In this document: in pieces, positions 1-9,166 of the stretch
Numbering within the stretch: position 1 is the first letter of the stretch
Layout of the letters: every line of letters begins with the position of its first letter
From: a virus
Strand: one strand, 5' to 3'
UHGV virus genome: UHGV-1346634
DNA: 12,591 nt
Translations under genes and position numbers: made by a program
The notes under the pieces: generated by a model
Database searches by the model: none
Told to the model about the DNA's origin: nothing
The model's input: only the letters and a program-made list of their open reading frames with translations

Positions 1-55
1 GAGCAATTGCCTTCTAAGCAATCGGTCACTGGTTCGAATCCAGTACAACGCGCCA
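1..55 (+). tRNA. 3' portion of a tRNA-Arg (anticodon UCU), truncated at the window edge
   Basis: Anticodon stem ATTGC (6-10) / GCAAT (18-22) around the 7-nt loop CTTCTAA (11-17), anticodon TCT at 13-15. T-stem ACTGG/CCAGT around the loop TTCGAAT (33-39), acceptor 3' strand, discriminator and CCA ending at 55. Position and anticodon fit the argO-type tRNA that precedes stx in Stx phages (from memory). Confidence 0.8.
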
Positions 56-68
56 CACTTATTTTCCC

Positions 69-93
69 AGGCTCGCTTTTGCGGGCCTTTTTT
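69..93 (+). terminator. Intrinsic terminator after the tRNA
   Basis: 8-bp stem AGGCTCGC / GCGGGCCT (one G-U pair) with TTTT loop, followed by a T-run to 93. Confidence 0.6.
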
Positions 94-140
94 GTCTCCG
101 TGCCACGCCCGGCGCATATCAACCACAGAGCCTTTCACAA

Positions 141-1076
141 ATGGTTTTTCAGGAATCCAATAATCGCGAAGTCGCCAGAAAATACGCAGAGTACATCACG
201 TCCGTTCCTTTGCGTCGGTTTGTCGCTGAAAAAGTGCGGGAATATTGTGGTGATCTGCCCCTGAGTATTTTTGATGGTGCGTGTGGCTCCGGGCAACTGG
301 AGCAGTTTCTCACGGTGGGAAGTCTGTATGCTGTGGATCTACAGGCCTCTCCGTTGTTGCATATCCCGGATAACTTCCCGGATGCCACAGTGAAGACGGT
401 CAATGAAAATTTCTTCAACGCCATAGATGATGTCAGTGACACGGACACGTTCGATTGTGTCATCATGAATCCGCCTTTTTCGCTACAGTACAAAGCACAG
501 AGCGCGGATATCAGGGAGAAGATTTCAGCGATGATGCCTTATAAAAAGACCTCCGGTGTTCTGGATGACGCGTTTTATGTTCTGGCGAGTATGAAGGCAA
601 GATTTTCATTTTTTTTGTGCTTTCCCGGGGTTGGTTACAGGCGTGGTGAGCTGGCAATGCGTCAGTATTTTGGCAACCGCGTTGTTGAGTTGGTTCAGAT
701 TTCAGGCGGGTTCGCTGATACATCGGTTTCTGTATTATTCGTCATTATTGATAACGAAAAGCAAAGCGATGATGTTGTTGTTTATGGCGTCGGGTTTAAT
801 GGGGAAACTTGCAAAAAGTCAGCGCCGGTGACGGAGAAGATTAACACAGAGAACTGGAACAGGCCGTACATTGCTGAAGAGAAGGTGGTCATTGACATTG
901 TACAGGTGACGGCTGAGTTGCTTGTAAGGCAAACAAGAAGACGGAAACTTGAAGATGAGCATAACGCCTTTGTGTGGTCCTTAATGAGTGATGATCAGCG
1001 GACGGAGGTTTCCCGTTTTCTGTCAGTGCACGGTTTGTTTTTTGATGCCGGTTCAGGTTGTGTGCACATACGTTAA
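141..1076 (+). CDS. SAM-dependent amino-methyltransferase, probably an orphan gamma-class N6-adenine DNA methyltransferase
   Basis: 311-aa ORF with ATG start. SAM-binding motif I-like IFDGACGSGQ (aa 43-52) precedes the catalytic motif NPPF (nt 468-479, in CVIMNPPFS); that order is the gamma-class arrangement. No nuclease partner is adjacent. A DNA substrate is inferred from phage context; an rRNA or protein methyltransferase with NPPF cannot be excluded without a profile search. Confidence 0.6.
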   Translation: MVFQESNNREVARKYAEYITSVPLRRFVAEKVREYCGDLPLSIFDGACGSGQLEQFLTVGSLYAVDLQASPLLHIPDNFPDATVKTVNENFFNAIDDVSDTDTFDCVIMNPPFSLQYKAQSADIREKISAMMPYKKTSGVLDDAFYVLASMKARFSFFLCFPGVGYRRGELAMRQYFGNRVVELVQISGGFADTSVSVLFVIIDNEKQSDDVVVYGVGFNGETCKKSAPVTEKINTENWNRPYIAEEKVVIDIVQVTAELLVRQTRRRKLEDEHNAFVWSLMSDDQRTEVSRFLSVHGLFFDAGSGCVHIR

Positions 1077-1083
1077 ATCTGAG

Positions 1084-1139
1084 GCTGGTCGCTGGTCGCT
1101 GGTCGCTGGTCGCTGGTCGCTGGTCGCTGGTCGCCGGTG
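1084..1139. repeat. Tandem heptanucleotide repeat, (GCTGGTC) x7 plus one degenerate unit GCCGGTG
   Basis: Seven perfect contiguous GCTGGTC units at 1084-1132 and a degenerate unit at 1133-1139, starting 8 nt after the methyltransferase stop codon. Confidence 0.95.
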
Positions 1140-1181
1140 TCGTGATGGTTGTCTTCCTGTTGCCCCGAAAATTTTAAATGT

Positions 1182-1411
1182 CTCACAATTCAGGCGGTTG
1201 ACAGTTGTCTGATTTGCGGGGCGTTTGTTAAAAGAAACTGGCATGGTGAATCCCCCTGAGCGGAGGGGCATATCAGCGACAGGTGTTTGGTTACATCCCT
1301 TATCCTTTCTGTGCGGGTTCAGGTGCTGATACTGAACTCACCGGGAGGCACCCGGCACCATGCAATGGCACATAGCGCCACTCTCCAGCCCCTCTCCGGA
1401 GGGGCTTTTCT
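1182..1411 (+). repeat. Copy A of a diverged ~230-bp direct repeat with two GC-rich hairpins; candidate small-RNA or regulatory element
   Basis: Shares with copy B the blocks CTCACAATTCAG, TTTGTTAAAA, CATGGTGAATCCCCCTG.GCGGAGGGGC, CTGAACTCACCGGGAGGCACCCGGCA.CATGCAATG and ACATAGCGC.ACTC.CAGCCCCTCTCCGGAGGGGCTTT. Hairpin 1 is at about 1252-1269, hairpin 2 (terminator-like) at 1387-1406. Confidence 0.7.
1387..1411 (+). terminator. Intrinsic terminator at the 3' end of repeat copy A
   Basis: 8-bp stem AGCCCCTC / GAGGGGCT with loop TCCG, followed by TTTTCT. Confidence 0.6.
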
Positions 1412-1599
1412 GTGCCGGATACATCACAGTTTCTGGAACCTTGGGTACTACAGTATCAGTCAGGGTGCTATATTTTCAGATGTGATGAAAGCCTGTCAGC
1501 AGGCAGGGCGTATCGGAAATGACCCAGTAGAGAAAACGTTGACTCAGATACCGGTGCTGAGTTACCGGGAAACCGGCATCACATGACCGCTATCCTTCC

Positions 1600-1627
1600 A
1601 GGCCCATCCGCTCCGGTGGGCCTTTTT
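1600..1627 (+). terminator. Intrinsic terminator between the two repeat copies
   Basis: 10-bp stem AGGCCCA(T)CCG / CGGTGGGCCT with one bulged T and loop CTC, followed by a T-run at 1623-1627. Confidence 0.6.
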
Positions 1628-1664
1628 ACTGCAGAAAACAGGTTCCCCGTTAAATGCTATGTTG

Positions 1665-1900
1665 CTCACAATTCAGTCAGTTGAAGGTTGTCTTCCCGAC
1701 TGAGAATTTGTTAAAAAATTTCTGCATGGTGAATCCCCCTGTGCGGAGGGGCGGCTGGTGTACGGTATGGTCTCTGATGATCGTTAGCGAGAATGACGCG
1801 GGTTCGGTGGCACCGGGCTGAACTCACCGGGAGGCACCCGGCATCATGCAATGAACGGTACATAGCGCTACTCCAGCCCCTCTCCGGAGGGGCTTTCTTA
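1665..1900 (+). repeat. Copy B of the diverged ~230-bp direct repeat
   Basis: Same conserved blocks as copy A in the same order with a divergent middle. Hairpin 1 at about 1735-1751, hairpin 2 at 1875-1894. Confidence 0.7.
1875..1900 (+). terminator. Intrinsic terminator at the 3' end of repeat copy B
   Basis: Same 8-bp stem AGCCCCTC / GAGGGGCT with loop TCCG as copy A, followed by TTTCTTAT. Confidence 0.55.
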
Positions 1901-1904
1901 TGGA

Positions 1905-1931
1905 TAAAAAAGCCCGCAACAATGTGCGGGC
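1905..1931 (-). terminator. Terminator-like hairpin oriented for the minus strand
   Basis: 7-bp stem GCCCGCA / TGCGGGC with a 6-nt loop, preceded on the + strand by AAAAAA (1905-1910), so the U-tract lies on the minus strand. No minus-strand gene is evident upstream of it. Confidence 0.35.
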
Positions 1932-1995
1932 AAACATGATTAACACTTTCAAAAAGCAATGAATTTAGCGGACAGATTTTAACCAGAATTCATAA

Positions 1996-2020
1996 GGCTG
2001 CGCAACTGCGCGGCCTTTTT
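1996..2020 (+). terminator. Intrinsic terminator upstream of nanS-p
   Basis: 8-bp stem GGCTGCGC / GCGCGGCC (one G-U pair) with loop AACT, followed by TTTTT at 2016-2020. Confidence 0.55.
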
Positions 2021-2122
2021 CGTATTGCGGGCTGTAGTCTTCCTCCTGCCATTGTCCTGTAACTTCCGGACTTCAGCTCGCTCCTTATCTGACTCACAAC
2101 ATTATCCCGACCGGGAGGATTC

Positions 2123-4102
2123 ATGACATTTAAACACTACGATGTGGTCAGGGCGGCGTCGCCGTCAGACCTTGCGGAGCGACTGACTCAAAAACTGAAG
2201 GAGGGGTGGCAGCCATTTGGCAGTCCTGTCGCCATCACGCCTTATACCCTGATGCAGGCCATTGCGGCGGAAGGTGATGTCACCACACCTGTGGTGGTGA
2301 AGCCGTCGGATGGAGAAGGCACAGTTATCAGCACCACCAGCGAACCGGAGTATTACTTTGTTGTTGTTCTGGCGGGGCAGTCAAACTCAATGTCTTTTGG
2401 TGAAGGGCTGCCGCTGCCGGAGACATATGACCGTCCGGACCCGCGTATTAAACAGCTGGCGCGTCGCAGTACGGTGACGCCGGGTGGTGCCGCCTGTAAA
2501 TATAACGACATCATTCCGGCAGACCACTGTCTGCATGATGTGCAGGATATGAGTAACCTGAATCATCCTCATGCAGACCTGAGTAAGGGACAGTACGGTT
2601 GTGTGGGGCATGCTCTGCATGTTGCCAAAAAGCTGCTGCCGTTTATGCCTGCGAATGCGGGTATCCTTCTTGTTCCATGTGGCCGTGGCGATTCGGGATT
2701 TACTGCGGGGGCCGAGGGGGCGTTTAACGAAGCGTCGGGAGCGACCGCAGGCTCGTCCCTGTGGGGGGCGGATAAACCGCTGTATCATGACCTGGTCAGC
2801 AGAACCCGTGCGGCCCTGAAGAAAAATCCGAAGAACGTGCTGTTATCAGTGATCTGGATGCAGGGAGAAAAAGATGTCAGTTCGGGGAGACATGCAGAAC
2901 ACAATGCGCTTTTCCTTGCCATGGTAAATCAGTTCCGTACGGAACTGGCAGATGTGGCAGAGCAGTGTACTGGCGGGACAACGGCCAGCGTCCCGTGGAT
3001 TTGCGGTGATACCACGTACTACTGGAAGGAAAGGTATGCAGCGCCGTATGAGGCGGTTTACGGTGGGTATAAAGGAAAAGCTGCGCAGAATATTCACTTT
3101 GTGCCGTTGATGACGGATGAGCATGGTGTGAATGTGCCGACAAACGAGCCGTCAGAAGATCCGGACATTATCCCGGCGGGATACTATGGCGCTGCGTCAC
3201 GCACTGCCAGTAACTGGACGGCAGCCGATCGTAAAACGCACTTCAGTTCATGGGCGCGAAGAGGCCTTGTTTCAGACCGCCTGGCAGGTGCCATTTTGCA
3301 GTACGCCGGGCGGACATTATCGTTCCTTACCGGGCAGAGCGCACCGCAGTCGGGTGGTACAACGCCTGTCAGTCCGGGGACACCGGATGTTGAGAAACCG
3401 CAGGATGGCGGTGTTGCTGGTACTGGTCATGATGAGGCCGTGAGCAGTACCAGGACGGTGGCTGAATATGATGCGAACAGTGGAAATGGTGCATTGACAG
3501 AGCAGCAGTGGGGCGCTTCCGGCGGCAAAGGCACTGTGACTGATGACGGTGGACGGAAAGCGCTGCGACTGGAAAAACAGCCCGGTAAACTGACGTCCTG
3601 GAAAATGTTCCGTACTATTGCAGTGGAGGAGGCAAAAAATCTTCTCAGCAAGGGGGGGGAAATTGCCGTACGGTTCAAAATTCCGGATGGAAGCGAGCTG
3701 GTGAACGGACAGTTTGTCTTTGGTATCTACTGGCCGGTGTCGCAGTGGGCGTCAGGCGCGACAGCAAACAGTATGCTGGCATCATTCTTCCTTCAGACGG
3801 ATACATCAAATCTTAATCTGATGCACCAGAAGGGCTCCTCGAATGCACAACTGGGTACATTTGGTACGTTTGACCATAACTGGCATACGGTTGTTTTCCG
3901 CTTTGCGGGAAATAACAGCGAAAGAGTTGTTCCGGTGATTGATGGTGCAGAGCAGACGGCATTTGACCTTGTGATGTGGACAAATGATGGCTTTACAGCA
4001 GATACGCTGACGCTGACAGATATCACGGGGGCAAAAGCGACGTATCCGGTACTGCTTGATACGGTCACAGTCAAAGTTAACGAAAGCCGGGCATCATCAT
4101 AA
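2123..4102 (+). CDS. nanS-p: Prophage sialate 9-O-acetylesterase (NanS-p type)
   Basis: 659-aa ORF with RBS GGGAGG 4 nt before the ATG. SGNH-esterase motif LAGQSN (in VVVLAGQSNSM) and a DUF1737-like N-terminus. Size and position match the large esterase ORF downstream of stx in 933W-type phages (from memory). Confidence 0.8.
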   Translation: MTFKHYDVVRAASPSDLAERLTQKLKEGWQPFGSPVAITPYTLMQAIAAEGDVTTPVVVKPSDGEGTVISTTSEPEYYFVVVLAGQSNSMSFGEGLPLPETYDRPDPRIKQLARRSTVTPGGAACKYNDIIPADHCLHDVQDMSNLNHPHADLSKGQYGCVGHALHVAKKLLPFMPANAGILLVPCGRGDSGFTAGAEGAFNEASGATAGSSLWGADKPLYHDLVSRTRAALKKNPKNVLLSVIWMQGEKDVSSGRHAEHNALFLAMVNQFRTELADVAEQCTGGTTASVPWICGDTTYYWKERYAAPYEAVYGGYKGKAAQNIHFVPLMTDEHGVNVPTNEPSEDPDIIPAGYYGAASRTASNWTAADRKTHFSSWARRGLVSDRLAGAILQYAGRTLSFLTGQSAPQSGGTTPVSPGTPDVEKPQDGGVAGTGHDEAVSSTRTVAEYDANSGNGALTEQQWGASGGKGTVTDDGGRKALRLEKQPGKLTSWKMFRTIAVEEAKNLLSKGGEIAVRFKIPDGSELVNGQFVFGIYWPVSQWASGATANSMLASFFLQTDTSNLNLMHQKGSSNAQLGTFGTFDHNWHTVVFRFAGNNSERVVPVIDGAEQTAFDLVMWTNDGFTADTLTLTDITGAKATYPVLLDTVTVKVNESRASS

Positions 4103-4806: not shown

Positions 4807-5022
4807 ATGTACCAGATGGAAAAAATCACAACAGGTGTGTCATACACCACGTCAGCGGTGGGAACGGGCTACTGGTTCCTGCAGTTGCTGGACAGGGTTT
4901 CCCCGTCTCAGTGGGCGGCAATAGGCGTGCTGGGGAGTCTGCTGTTTGGTCTGCTGACGTACCTGACGAACCTGTATTTCAAAATTAAAGAAGACCGGCG
5001 TAAGGCGGCCCGGGGAGAGTAA
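4807..5022 (+). CDS. S: Class II holin (pinholin, S21-like) with dual start
   Basis: 71 aa; near-identical in pattern to phage 21 S ([23 protein letters not shown]...[21 protein letters not shown], from memory). Two in-frame starts at M1 (4807) and M4 (4816), the usual antiholin/holin arrangement. A SAR endolysin follows. Confidence 0.9.
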
Positions 5023-5026
5023 AGCG

Positions 5027-6013
5027 ATGAATAAAAAATATGAACTGGTTGTAAAAGGGATAAATCATTACCCGGATAAGATAACTGTTACTGTGGCACT
5101 GGTAATTGCCGGGCAGCCGTCGTTGTTGTCGCCATATGTGGCGATTAGTCTTGACCGTACTGAAGGTGCCACGCTGGAGTTTTACGAAGCTGAGGCGAAA
5201 AAACAGGCGAAGCAGTTTTTCATGGATGCGGCTCTCGGATTACGCGAAGGGACTGCGCGATATGGCTTTCAGAATATTTCTTCATGGACAATGCCGGAAA
5301 AAATCGCCACTTACCCGGGGCGTGAAAAGGTCAACGAACCGGTAAAAAATGCGCCTGATGATGTGCAGAGCGCGATGGTTAATGTGGAGCTTCCGGCACG
5401 TGTGACACCAGGAGTGAAAGTCGGGGAAGATTCTCGTCTTGTGCTGACCAAAAGAATAGGCAGCGTGGTCAGTGTTCATATTGATCATGAGGAAGTTCTG
5501 TCGGTTATGTACAGGGAAGACTACGATCCGAAAACAACATTCAGCGACTATGAAGCGAGAGCAAAGGAGTATGCCTTGTCGGTATTTGCTGCGGTACGTG
5601 GCGAGGACTGTCGTAAAAACGGGCATGAAAGTGATTTTACTGTGCCTGTGTCGGACAAAAACCAGGAACGGGAGTGTAACCGGCCATCCTTTGTTGTATC
5701 CGGTGATGACGGGAAAATCACCATATCAGAAAATGGAAAAGTAACACCGCCATCGCACCAGCACTGTGAGATGCTCATTGAATTTGCCATTGATTACCTG
5801 AAGAACAATAAAAAACAGGGGCTGATGAAGCGTATTGGTCGTTGCATGGGATATCTGCAGGTAGCTGCTGAGATTGAAGCGCTGGCCAGTGGTGCTGAAA
5901 AGGATGCAGTTGTGCGGGAGACCGTTCTTCGTGATTTCAATACTCCACCCTTTAAGACTGAGCCTGATAACTGGATCCAGCCGGGGCTGACTTATCTTAA
6001 AGTGCGTATTTAG
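5027..6013 (+). CDS. Hypothetical 328-aa protein inserted between holin and endolysin; function unknown
   Basis: Long uninterrupted ORF. ATG is 4 nt after the holin stop, with GGGGAGAG 9 nt upstream, so it is translationally embedded in the late lysis operon. No signal peptide, transmembrane segment or motif that I recognise. P21 and 933W-type cassettes, as I recall them, have S followed directly by R. Confidence 0.6.
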   Translation: MNKKYELVVKGINHYPDKITVTVALVIAGQPSLLSPYVAISLDRTEGATLEFYEAEAKKQAKQFFMDAALGLREGTARYGFQNISSWTMPEKIATYPGREKVNEPVKNAPDDVQSAMVNVELPARVTPGVKVGEDSRLVLTKRIGSVVSVHIDHEEVLSVMYREDYDPKTTFSDYEARAKEYALSVFAAVRGEDCRKNGHESDFTVPVSDKNQERECNRPSFVVSGDDGKITISENGKVTPPSHQHCEMLIEFAIDYLKNNKKQGLMKRIGRCMGYLQVAAEIEALASGAEKDAVVRETVLRDFNTPPFKTEPDNWIQPGLTYLKVRI

Positions 6014-6855: not shown

Positions 6856-7551
6856 ATGAAAGAGATGATTTCTGTCGATCATGAAATATCCATGAGTAGT
6901 CTGGATTTTCTGAATAACATTATTAACCCCATCCGGGTTGAGGCAGGGAAACCACCTCATGAACCGCGTAAGTTCCTTGCAAAAATTGAGGACGAACTTG
7001 AGCTTGAGGTAACCTGGAAAAAATTCCGGTTAAACAATAACCAGACAAGAACGGCATACTATGATCTGGATTTTGACCAGATGATGCTCGTTGGCATGAG
7101 AGAGTCAAAGGCCGTTCGTCGTTCTGTGCTGGCAAGGCTCAAAGCGATGCATGGTATTCAGATCCCCCAGACTTTACCTGAGGCGTTGCGATTTGCGGCA
7201 AAACTGGCAGAACAGAAAGCAGTGCTGGAAAATCAACTGGCAATAGCAGCGCCGAAGGCTGAATTTGTTGATAACTATGTTGAAGCATCTGGTCTGATGG
7301 GATTCCGGGAAGTTGCTAAGTTACTCGGTATCAAAGAAACCGATTTCCGGCTGTTTTTGTTGGAGAACGGAATAATGTATCGCCTCGCTGGAAAAATGAC
7401 GCCTTACTCGCATCACCTGGATGTGGGGCGGTTTAGCGTGAAAACGGGCGAGGCGGGCAATGGTCATGCTTTTACGCAGGTTAAATTCACCCCAAAAGGT
7501 GTTCAGTGGATTGCTGGTCTGCTTGCTGCATGGAGAGCTACCGCAGCATGA
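6856..7551 (+). CDS. ant: Phage antirepressor (KilAC-domain, Ant-like)
   Basis: 231 aa with RBS AAGGAA 6 nt before the ATG. C-terminal half has the KilAC/ANT-type pattern. An ant-like gene between R and Rz is a feature of 933W-type phages (from memory). Confidence 0.7.
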   Translation: MKEMISVDHEISMSSLDFLNNIINPIRVEAGKPPHEPRKFLAKIEDELELEVTWKKFRLNNNQTRTAYYDLDFDQMMLVGMRESKAVRRSVLARLKAMHGIQIPQTLPEALRFAAKLAEQKAVLENQLAIAAPKAEFVDNYVEASGLMGFREVAKLLGIKETDFRLFLLENGIMYRLAGKMTPYSHHLDVGRFSVKTGEAGNGHAFTQVKFTPKGVQWIAGLLAAWRATAA

Positions 7552-8819: not shown

Positions 8820-8833
8820 TATCTGTGCCGGGA

Positions 8834-9166
8834 ATGAAAATGAAAAGAAATCTTCCGTTAATTATTTTGTTGTCTTCTCTGGTTATGGGCTGTACGCAAC
8901 ATAAAACAGATATGCCCCGACAGTTGGTTAAGGCATTACCACAATATCCGGCCTATGCAGTGGCAAATTATATAAAGGGACGGGTTGATGTGAAGTTTGA
9001 TATTGGTGCTGATGGTACTGTCACCCGAATTGAGTTTATCCGTTCAGAGCCGCACCATCTGTTTGATGAGCAGGTTGTAAAGGCGATGGCAAAATGGCGA
9101 TTTGAGAAGGACAGGCCGCGTAAAGGCGTGAAGAAAACGTTTATCTTTAGTCCTTCTGCACCCTGA
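8834..9166 (+). CDS. Lipoprotein consisting of a TonB C-terminal-like domain
   Basis: Signal peptide with lipobox (MKMKRNLPLIILLSSLVMGC). The mature part aligns by eye to the E. coli TonB C-terminal domain: PQYPAYAVANYIKGRVDVKFDIGADGTVTRIEFIRSEP..FDEQVVKAMAKWRFE against TonB [53 protein letters not shown]. Alternative starts at 8825 (GTG) and 8840 (ATG). Confidence 0.7.
   Translation: MKMKRNLPLIILLSSLVMGCTQHKTDMPRQLVKALPQYPAYAVANYIKGRVDVKFDIGADGTVTRIEFIRSEPHHLFDEQVVKAMAKWRFEKDRPRKGVKKTFIFSPSAP

Follow-up and report, generated by a model that had tools for sequence, protein, structure and literature searches.

In the virus genome UHGV-1346634, a lambdoid E. coli prophage from which a stretch of 12,591 nucleotides was analysed on one strand (the window, meaning here that whole stretch), a methyltransferase gene occupies the slot between a phage tRNA-Arg(UCU) and a NanS-p-type esterase gene that holds stxAB in a Shiga toxin 2a (Stx2a) phage. 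The gene (141..1076, + strand, ATG start) is predicted to code for a gamma-class N6-adenine methyltransferase of 311 aa with an HsdM-type core, and by sequence comparison the protein appears to be a trimmed HsdM, made of the catalytic core and the C-terminal helix. The position in the slot, the intact gene, the purifying selection, the fold and motifs, and the absence of restriction (R) and specificity (S) partners are observed. On balance, and with modest confidence, we favour the reading that the protein is a Q-dependent, late, solitary N6-adenine DNA methyltransferase that marks progeny DNA against restriction. The original prediction had placed a methyltransferase with FDGACGSG followed by NPPF in this slot, and the flanks, which match the Stx2a phage, bear it out; the derivation from HsdM had been missed, and it raises the question of how DNA is recognized without a specificity subunit.

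On its left the slot is marked by the 3' 55 nt of an argO-type phage tRNA-Arg(UCU) (1..55, + strand), whose 5' part lies beyond the window start. Positions 21-71 of the Rfam tRNA model are matched by window 1-52 (38 bits, E 3.9e-5, flagged as 5'-cut), and the anticodon loop reads CUUCUAA. E. coli strain 48 has an annotated tRNA-Arg(tct) of 77 nt (L001 8839-8915); BLAST aligns window position 1 with its nt 23, which puts the end of the tRNA at window 55. ARAGORN reported no tRNA in the window, because this one is cut by the window edge. Between the tRNA and the methyltransferase start lies an intrinsic-terminator-like hairpin, AGGCTCGC-TTTT-GCGGGCCT (69-88), followed by a T run (69..94 in all, + strand); the terminator scan gave it 8 pairs, 6 of them G-C. 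In the multiple alignment this hairpin is conserved in the Stx2a phage, in the locus of a 78%-identical allele of the methyltransferase gene and in strain 2012EL-2448. The right landmark is the NanS-p-type esterase gene (2123..4102, + strand), which has the Pfam domains DUF1737, SASA and DUF6645 and is homologous to the gene after stxB in the Stx2a phage. Both landmarks had been named beforehand, and both are present.

The borders of the cassette were defined by comparison with the Stx2a phage Lyz12581Vzw, in which the gene order is Q, tRNA-Ile2, tRNA-Arg(tcg), tRNA-Arg(tct), stx2A, stx2B and esterase. Window 1-104 is 91% identical by BLAST to the tRNA of this phage and the next 49 nt, and homology is back from window 1179 onward, with phage sequence that starts 42 nt after stxB. 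The left-side divergence is placed at ~105 by BLAST and at ~121 by multiple alignment; in the latter, the methyltransferase ATG is placed about where the stx2A ATG lies. The segment replaced in the Stx2a phage (L010 2604-3927) contains stx2A and stx2B. A close relative of the late region that lacks the methyltransferase gene (L003) aligns only from window 1167. Because homology to the Stx2a phage stops after 104 and resumes at 1179, the ~1.07-kb cassette 105..1178, to which no strand is assigned, is an allelic replacement of the 1.32-kb stxAB cassette, and with such homologous flanks it can be classed with the moron cassettes of the stx slot. No stx-like open reading frame (ORF) was found among the ORFs of the window and no restriction gene in the window, nor is there an S gene nearby, in agreement with the earlier claim of a slot with neither toxin nor adjacent restriction partner. 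Apart from this, the window is an ordinary late region of the lambdoid type, with DUF1378, DUF826, a P21-type holin, DUF1327, lysozyme, Ant and Rz, and further on a TonB_C protein, HNH and the small and large terminase subunits.

Of 5426 complete E. coli genomes, 2253 have the left junction of the slot, on the tRNA-Arg(UCU) side, at ~6245 places in total. The methyltransferase gene itself is present at 13 places in 12 of the 5426 genomes, which corresponds to ~0.2% of the slot junctions (13/~6245), and a distant blastn search in the E. coli genomes yielded nothing beyond those 12. Three other junctions, opened in stx-negative prophages, hold a pair of TerB-family and DUF3927 genes between the same tRNA and the esterase (L014 3725-4317, L015 3726-4318 and L016 3726-4312). 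The stxAB and TerB/DUF3927 cassettes share with the methyltransferase cassette the tRNA-Arg(UCU) and the hairpin on the left, and an STnc100-like region and NanS-p on the right; they differ from it in coding for a toxin or a TerB-like protein, unrelated to the methyltransferase. The stx slot is therefore a common site whose cargo can be exchanged, as the ~6245 junctions and the TerB/DUF3927 alternative show, and the methyltransferase is one of its rare cargoes. The positional finding is correct; cargo exchange at the stx slot is nonetheless expected, and a methyltransferase that stands alone is a usual type of phage cargo.

Individual strains offer some variations on this arrangement. Strain 2013C-3033 carries the methyltransferase prophage plus a second prophage with the TerB/DUF3927 pair in the slot. 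In strain 2015C-3121 an IS1A (L002 5181-5878, ~window 74-81) lies between the tRNA-Arg and the methyltransferase, inside the hairpin, and the methyltransferase ORF is annotated as extended to 338 aa. L003 is the closest relative of the late region to lack both the tRNAs and the methyltransferase; downstream of Q, on the opposite strand, it has a gene with the annotation 'type I restriction endonuclease' (4809-5966), another cargo of the interval from Q to lysis.

The methyltransferase gene is intact in the window, and its frame is also intact in all five other sequences compared, namely three near-identical E. coli copies and alleles of 78% and 60% identity. Between the window gene and the 78%-identical allele dN/dS is 0.105 (dN 0.124, dS ~1.18), which indicates purifying selection at the sequence level. 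With a GC content of 47% the gene is below both the esterase gene (54%) and the window as a whole (52%). The order Q, beta-class methyltransferase, tRNA-Ile, tRNA-Arg, tRNA-Arg, this gene and esterase was found in all three E. coli genomes fetched, and the same stretch appears as one joined match in ten genomes. On its metagenomic contig, the 78%-identical allele is preceded by a Q-like gene and the same tRNA pair, the latter ending 83 nt before it; the allele of 60% identity (L013) says little on context, as its contig of 1.8 kb has no tRNA and differs in the upstream sequence. Beyond E. coli, homologues are found in the nin region of a Providencia prophage (before RusA) and of a Pasteurella prophage (between NinB and NinG); a further one is carried by a metagenomic phage contig of 47 kb, where a few small genes separate it from the terminase downstream. 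Neither hsdS nor hsdR was found beside the gene in the E. coli, Providencia, Pasteurella or metagenomic phage loci examined.

The protein has 588 database homologues and matches phrog_6380, 'DNA methyltransferase', in PHROGs (E 2.4e-77); names already given in RefSeq are 'SAM-dependent DNA methyltransferase' and 'DNA methyltransferase family protein'. Among 1.84 billion representative proteins the family comprises 54 clusters at E<=1e-30 and 152 at E<=1e-10 (clusters at 50% identity). Its full-length members have 280-350 aa, and proteins of the size of HsdM come in only at about 1e-12 to 1e-17; the trimmed architecture is found in phages of Firmicutes, Fusobacteria and Proteobacteria. By tblastn, the gene is in no E. 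coli phage among 50,697 deposited phages; the sole homologues are in Streptococcus, Mannheimia and Fusobacterium phages at ~40% identity, and a megablast search of window 1-2200 against the deposited phages matched the flanks alone.

The assignment of the protein to its class rests on motifs, profiles and fold. A motif X-like AEYIT (A16-T20; 186..200, + strand) aligns with GEFYTP / GGEFFTP of HsdM; motif I, the S-adenosylmethionine (SAM)-binding loop FDGACGSG (F44-G51; 270..293, + strand), aligns with YDPxCGSG; and motif IV, the catalytic amino-methyltransferase motif NPPF (N110-F113; 468..479, + strand), aligns with NPPY. Across 50 family members the invariant residues are A16, E17 and T20 in the first motif, F44, D45, G46, G49, S50 and G51 in the second, and N110, P112 and F113 in the third. 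The order X, I, IV is that of the gamma class, with a variable C-terminus from ~aa 206. Pfam N6_Mtase (PF02384) is matched at 22.3 bits vs a gathering score of 20.4 (E 9.2e-5), and 44 of the 50 diverse homologues match it at E<=0.001 (best 2.1e-12), with MTS matched by 17 of the 50. For the window protein MTS (PF05175) stays below threshold (18.5 vs 23), and neither this score nor the closest fold places it with RsmC/RsmD. The Eco57I Pfam model did not reach its gathering score, the HemK/PrmC equivalog TIGR03534 did not reach its cut-off, and the NCBIfam matches, all sub-threshold, are to hsdM, PrmC and Alw26I-type models. PF01555 gave no match in the 311-aa protein, whose motif order is opposite to that of the beta class. 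PADLOC gave generic methyltransferase matches only, the best being mad2 at 1e-6. In the profile check that accompanied the original prediction the protein therefore falls to N6_Mtase, with no confident placement among rRNA or protein methyltransferases, MTS and PrmC being sub-threshold.

An AlphaFold2 (AF2) model built on the 50-sequence alignment has a pLDDT of 91.7 and a pTM of 0.77. The top 50 Foldseek matches in the PDB are all DNA adenine methyltransferases, among them PacII, M.BseCI, HsdM proteins, CamA and MmeI; a search of BFVD returned no viral structure of similar size. By profile, motif order and fold the protein is a member of the gamma-class N6_Mtase superfamily, and it is likely to be a DNA m6A methyltransferase.

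Within this superfamily the protein resembles from end to end the HsdM subunit of type I restriction-modification systems, such as EcoR124I/II (PDB 7bst) and S. thermophilus HsdM (3lkd). In a search with the family profile, the catalytic domain of EcoR124II HsdM is matched at 1.8e-16, and a weak second match, collinear with the first, falls on the C-terminal helix. The comparison set for profile-profile alignment consisted of nine true HsdM-type proteins, which score 278-343 bits on N6_Mtase and several of which have HsdM_N. Aligned with this set by hhalign, the family gave a probability of 99.8% and an E value of 7.8e-29, residues 12-282 of the family corresponding collinearly to residues 200-521 of the 523 of HsdM. 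Kept from HsdM are motif X, motif I, NPPF, the FPGxxYR...E..R block, the F.DT.I.V...K.K block and the C-terminal E-IDI-x-L-x-E helix. The AF2 secondary structure places the C-terminal helices at aa 253-281 and 284-296 (897..1028, + strand), homologous to the HsdM C-terminal helix. Only profile-profile comparison makes the relationship of this tail to HsdM visible; when the last 81 aa were searched by themselves in the PDB, nothing but noise came back. Across the family, two or more sequence classes of C-terminal tail can be told apart.

What is missing in comparison with HsdM is the ~200-aa N-terminal region that includes HsdM_N, and a ~40-residue segment before the C-terminal helix. HsdM_N (PF12161) gave no match in the protein even at E<=1, and the TIGR00497 score is 25.5 bits vs a cut-off of 242.75. 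The gene further differs from hsdM in being phage-borne and in lacking hsdS and hsdR. Since HsdM_N, the TIGR00497 score and the hsdS/hsdR context are all wanting, the protein is no HsdM in the strict sense. After the core, the AF2 model has ~105 residues, which form a small three-stranded sheet, two helices and a hairpin, a tail too small for a TaqI-type recognition domain. M.TaqI (1aqi), M.BseCI (7qw5) and CamA (7lni), which are 12-16% identical in sequence to the 311-aa protein, have a C-terminal recognition domain of ~170-300 aa.

The gene shares its solitary, phage-borne state with the phage orphan adenine methyltransferases. Among these, M.EcoGI and M.EcoGII are non-specific enzymes of E. 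coli prophages that are silent in the lysogen (PMC5778455). M.EcoGII was rejected as an identity for the window protein, since it is of the beta class (N-terminal DPPY, C-terminal FxGxG, PF01555), whereas the window protein is of the gamma class (PF02384), with no sequence relationship between the two. A gene of that other kind is present in the relatives: a 352-aa PF01555 gene annotated 'DNA-methyltransferase' (M.EcoGII, likewise of the beta class, has 349 aa) is found upstream of the window start in related prophages, with Q on one side and the tRNA cluster on the other (L001 7565-8623, L002 3801-4849 and L011 4577-5625); two of these three genomes have it with a frameshift annotation. The tRNAs of related prophages are consequently flanked by two unrelated methyltransferase genes, PF01555 upstream and gamma-class downstream. 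A second candidate, M.EcoPA8orf6770P, resembles the window gene in being a gene of an Stx-type prophage annotated as a DNA adenine methyltransferase, and methylates 16S rRNA with its partner PNB-2 (PMC10810198). This identity was also rejected: the enzyme belongs to the MT-A70 family with DPPW, has another prophage location, needs PNB-2 and is not homologous to the NPPF enzyme.

In the reading that we favour, the gene is probably silent in the lysogen, because a terminator hairpin and no recognisable promoter precede it; on the + strand, a crude consensus scan found nothing promoter-like ahead of the ATG. Q and pR' are present upstream in every relative examined. It is established that stx2 is transcribed by read-through of Q-modified polymerase from pR', and the methyltransferase gene would likewise be transcribed only after induction, when Q-modified RNA polymerase reads through from pR'. 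The late-operon expression of the original prediction, here taken to depend on Q, fits with the conserved hairpin 69-88 and with the promoter scan. The enzyme would then methylate adenines of the replicating phage DNA before packaging, and methylated progeny would escape restriction in the next host. Since the HsdM N-domain and a large recognition domain are absent, it would presumably act alone on a short or degenerate motif, possibly as a homodimer held by the C-terminal helix. Silence in lysogens and protection of phage DNA have been described for prophage orphan methyltransferases (PMC5778455, PMC8597746, PMC4190342), and protection from restriction is the accepted role of the phage orphan enzymes (PMC4190342).

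Several points weigh against this reading. HsdM subunits are normally inactive without HsdS, and the C-terminal helix that has been retained is the HsdS-binding part in type I enzymes. The N6_Mtase score is barely above its cut-off (22.3 vs 20.4). The promoter scan was of the crude consensus type, and pR' and Q lie outside the window; furthermore, other family members are in the nin (delayed-early) region and not in the late operon. In the literature we found no paper on this family, no characterised member and none on a methyltransferase in the stx slot, and the precedent of M.EcoPA8orf6770P shows that inference at the level of annotation can fail, and that behind such an annotation there can be an RNA substrate and an obligatory partner subunit (PMC10810198).

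In type I enzymes the HsdM C-terminal helix packs on the HsdS coiled coil (M2S/R2M2S structures, e.g. 5ybb, 7bst). If the enzyme needed a specificity subunit, its C-terminal helix might dock onto a host type I HsdS, leading to de novo methylation of host type I sites without recruitment of HsdR, as a Ral-like anti-restriction or decoy activity. The alignment of the family helix with that of HsdM, by hhalign and as the weak collinear match in the family-profile search, speaks for such docking, as do the absence of HsdM_N, the ~105 residues after the core that leave no room for a full recognition domain, and the two or more classes of C-terminal tail, as expected of a partner-matching module; one RefSeq record even bears the name 'type I restriction-modification system subunit M'. 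No conserved S-like gene lies beside any family member examined, however, late expression would come too late for incoming DNA, copying the current host's modification would be of little use to progeny, and homodimerisation could equally explain the tail, so that we hold docking to be distinctly unlikely. A broader version, that a mini-HsdM acts by an undescribed mode, which could be parasitism of host HsdS without recruitment of HsdR or a near-nonspecific dimer joined by the C-terminal helix and devoid of a recognition domain, we regard as unlikely; the dimer would be a gamma-class counterpart of M.EcoGII. A decaying type I hsdM remnant that has no present function could be suspected from the lack of the N-domain and of hsdS/hsdR neighbours and from an N6_Mtase score of 22 bits vs 240-340 for true HsdM proteins. 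The selection and conservation data largely refute it: dN/dS is 0.105 at a dS of ~1.2, the ORF is intact in every sequence examined, the 280-350 aa architecture is kept across 54 clusters and the catalytic motifs are invariant, and we find a dead gene scarcely credible.

The two remaining alternatives concern substrate and timing. An RNA substrate (rRNA, tRNA or mRNA), with m6A or m2G methylation modulating translation or prophage induction, is brought to mind by the sub-threshold MTS matches and by the precedents of M.EcoPA8orf6770P on 16S rRNA (PMC10810198) and of M.EcoGII, which also methylates RNA (PMC5778455); since the structural ranking favours DNA adenine methyltransferases and the homology to HsdM runs from end to end, we consider it quite improbable. 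Similarly small is the chance we give to a lysogen-expressed epigenetic regulator of host or prophage genes, acting in lysogenic conversion. Morons of this slot often benefit the lysogen, the slot being shared by stx and the TerB pair, a simple promoter scan could miss a real promoter, and the IS1 between tRNA and gene in one strain could supply an outward promoter. Against this stand the terminator hairpin directly upstream, the lack of a promoter-like site in the scan, and the silence in lysogens of the prophage orphan methyltransferases studied so far (PMC5778455, PMC8597746).

Other features of the window were recorded beside the cassette genes. A perfect heptamer microsatellite, (GCTGGTC) x 7.9 (1084..1138, no strand assigned, TRF score 103), starts 8 nt after the methyltransferase stop, inside the cassette; with 2-3 imperfect units in three related genomes, the repeat is expanded by 35 bp in the window's strain. 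Three Rfam matches to the STnc100 small RNA (sRNA) lie in tandem on the + strand between the methyltransferase and nanS-p (1212-1417, 1456-1629 and 1695-1905), two of them strong (140 and 167 bits) and one weak (30 bits), each ending in a terminator-like hairpin. In the BLAST comparison, both window STnc100 copies are matched by one and the same stretch of the Stx2a phage, located downstream of stxB, i.e. the phage has one copy there. The right-hand recombination joint of the cassette (1167-1179) lies just before the first STnc100 copy. On the - strand, a terminator-like hairpin, GCCCGCACATTGTTGCGGGC followed by T6 (1912-1931), is found in a region homologous to sequence downstream of stxB. 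The anti-sRNA AsxR has been described 282 bp 3' of stx2AB in antisense orientation (PMC4104026), and the hairpin could belong to a candidate anti-sRNA of the AsxR/AgvB type.

In the lysis region, strain 48 has a third methyltransferase gene (PF01555, 311 aa; L001 15877-16812) between lysozyme and Rz, and at that position the window has a KilAC antirepressor gene (6856-7551). Because these two genes share a position, the lysozyme-Rz interval is another exchangeable cargo site in the lysis cassette. A 328-aa ORF (5027-6013) has DUF1327 in its first 75 residues only, followed by a ~250-aa extension with no domain assigned, and its counterparts in relatives are annotated as truncated pseudogenes. 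After Rz, a 113-aa ORF (8825-9166) has a TonB_C domain.

For the biology of E. coli that produce Shiga toxin, the stx slot is seen here at base-pair resolution as exchangeable, holding stxAB, the TerB/DUF3927 pair or a methyltransferase, and Stx-like, stx-negative prophages are consequently recombination partners that differ in the cassette alone. In the field of restriction-modification, the family represents an offshoot of HsdM that is compact, uncharacterised and confined to phages. The trimmed HsdM architecture, together with the mode of DNA recognition, is the sole point that might surprise specialists. Should the enzyme turn out to be non-specific, or dependent on HsdS, it would make a useful reagent or represent a new strategy of anti-restriction; if not, it would simply add to the phage orphan methyltransferases.

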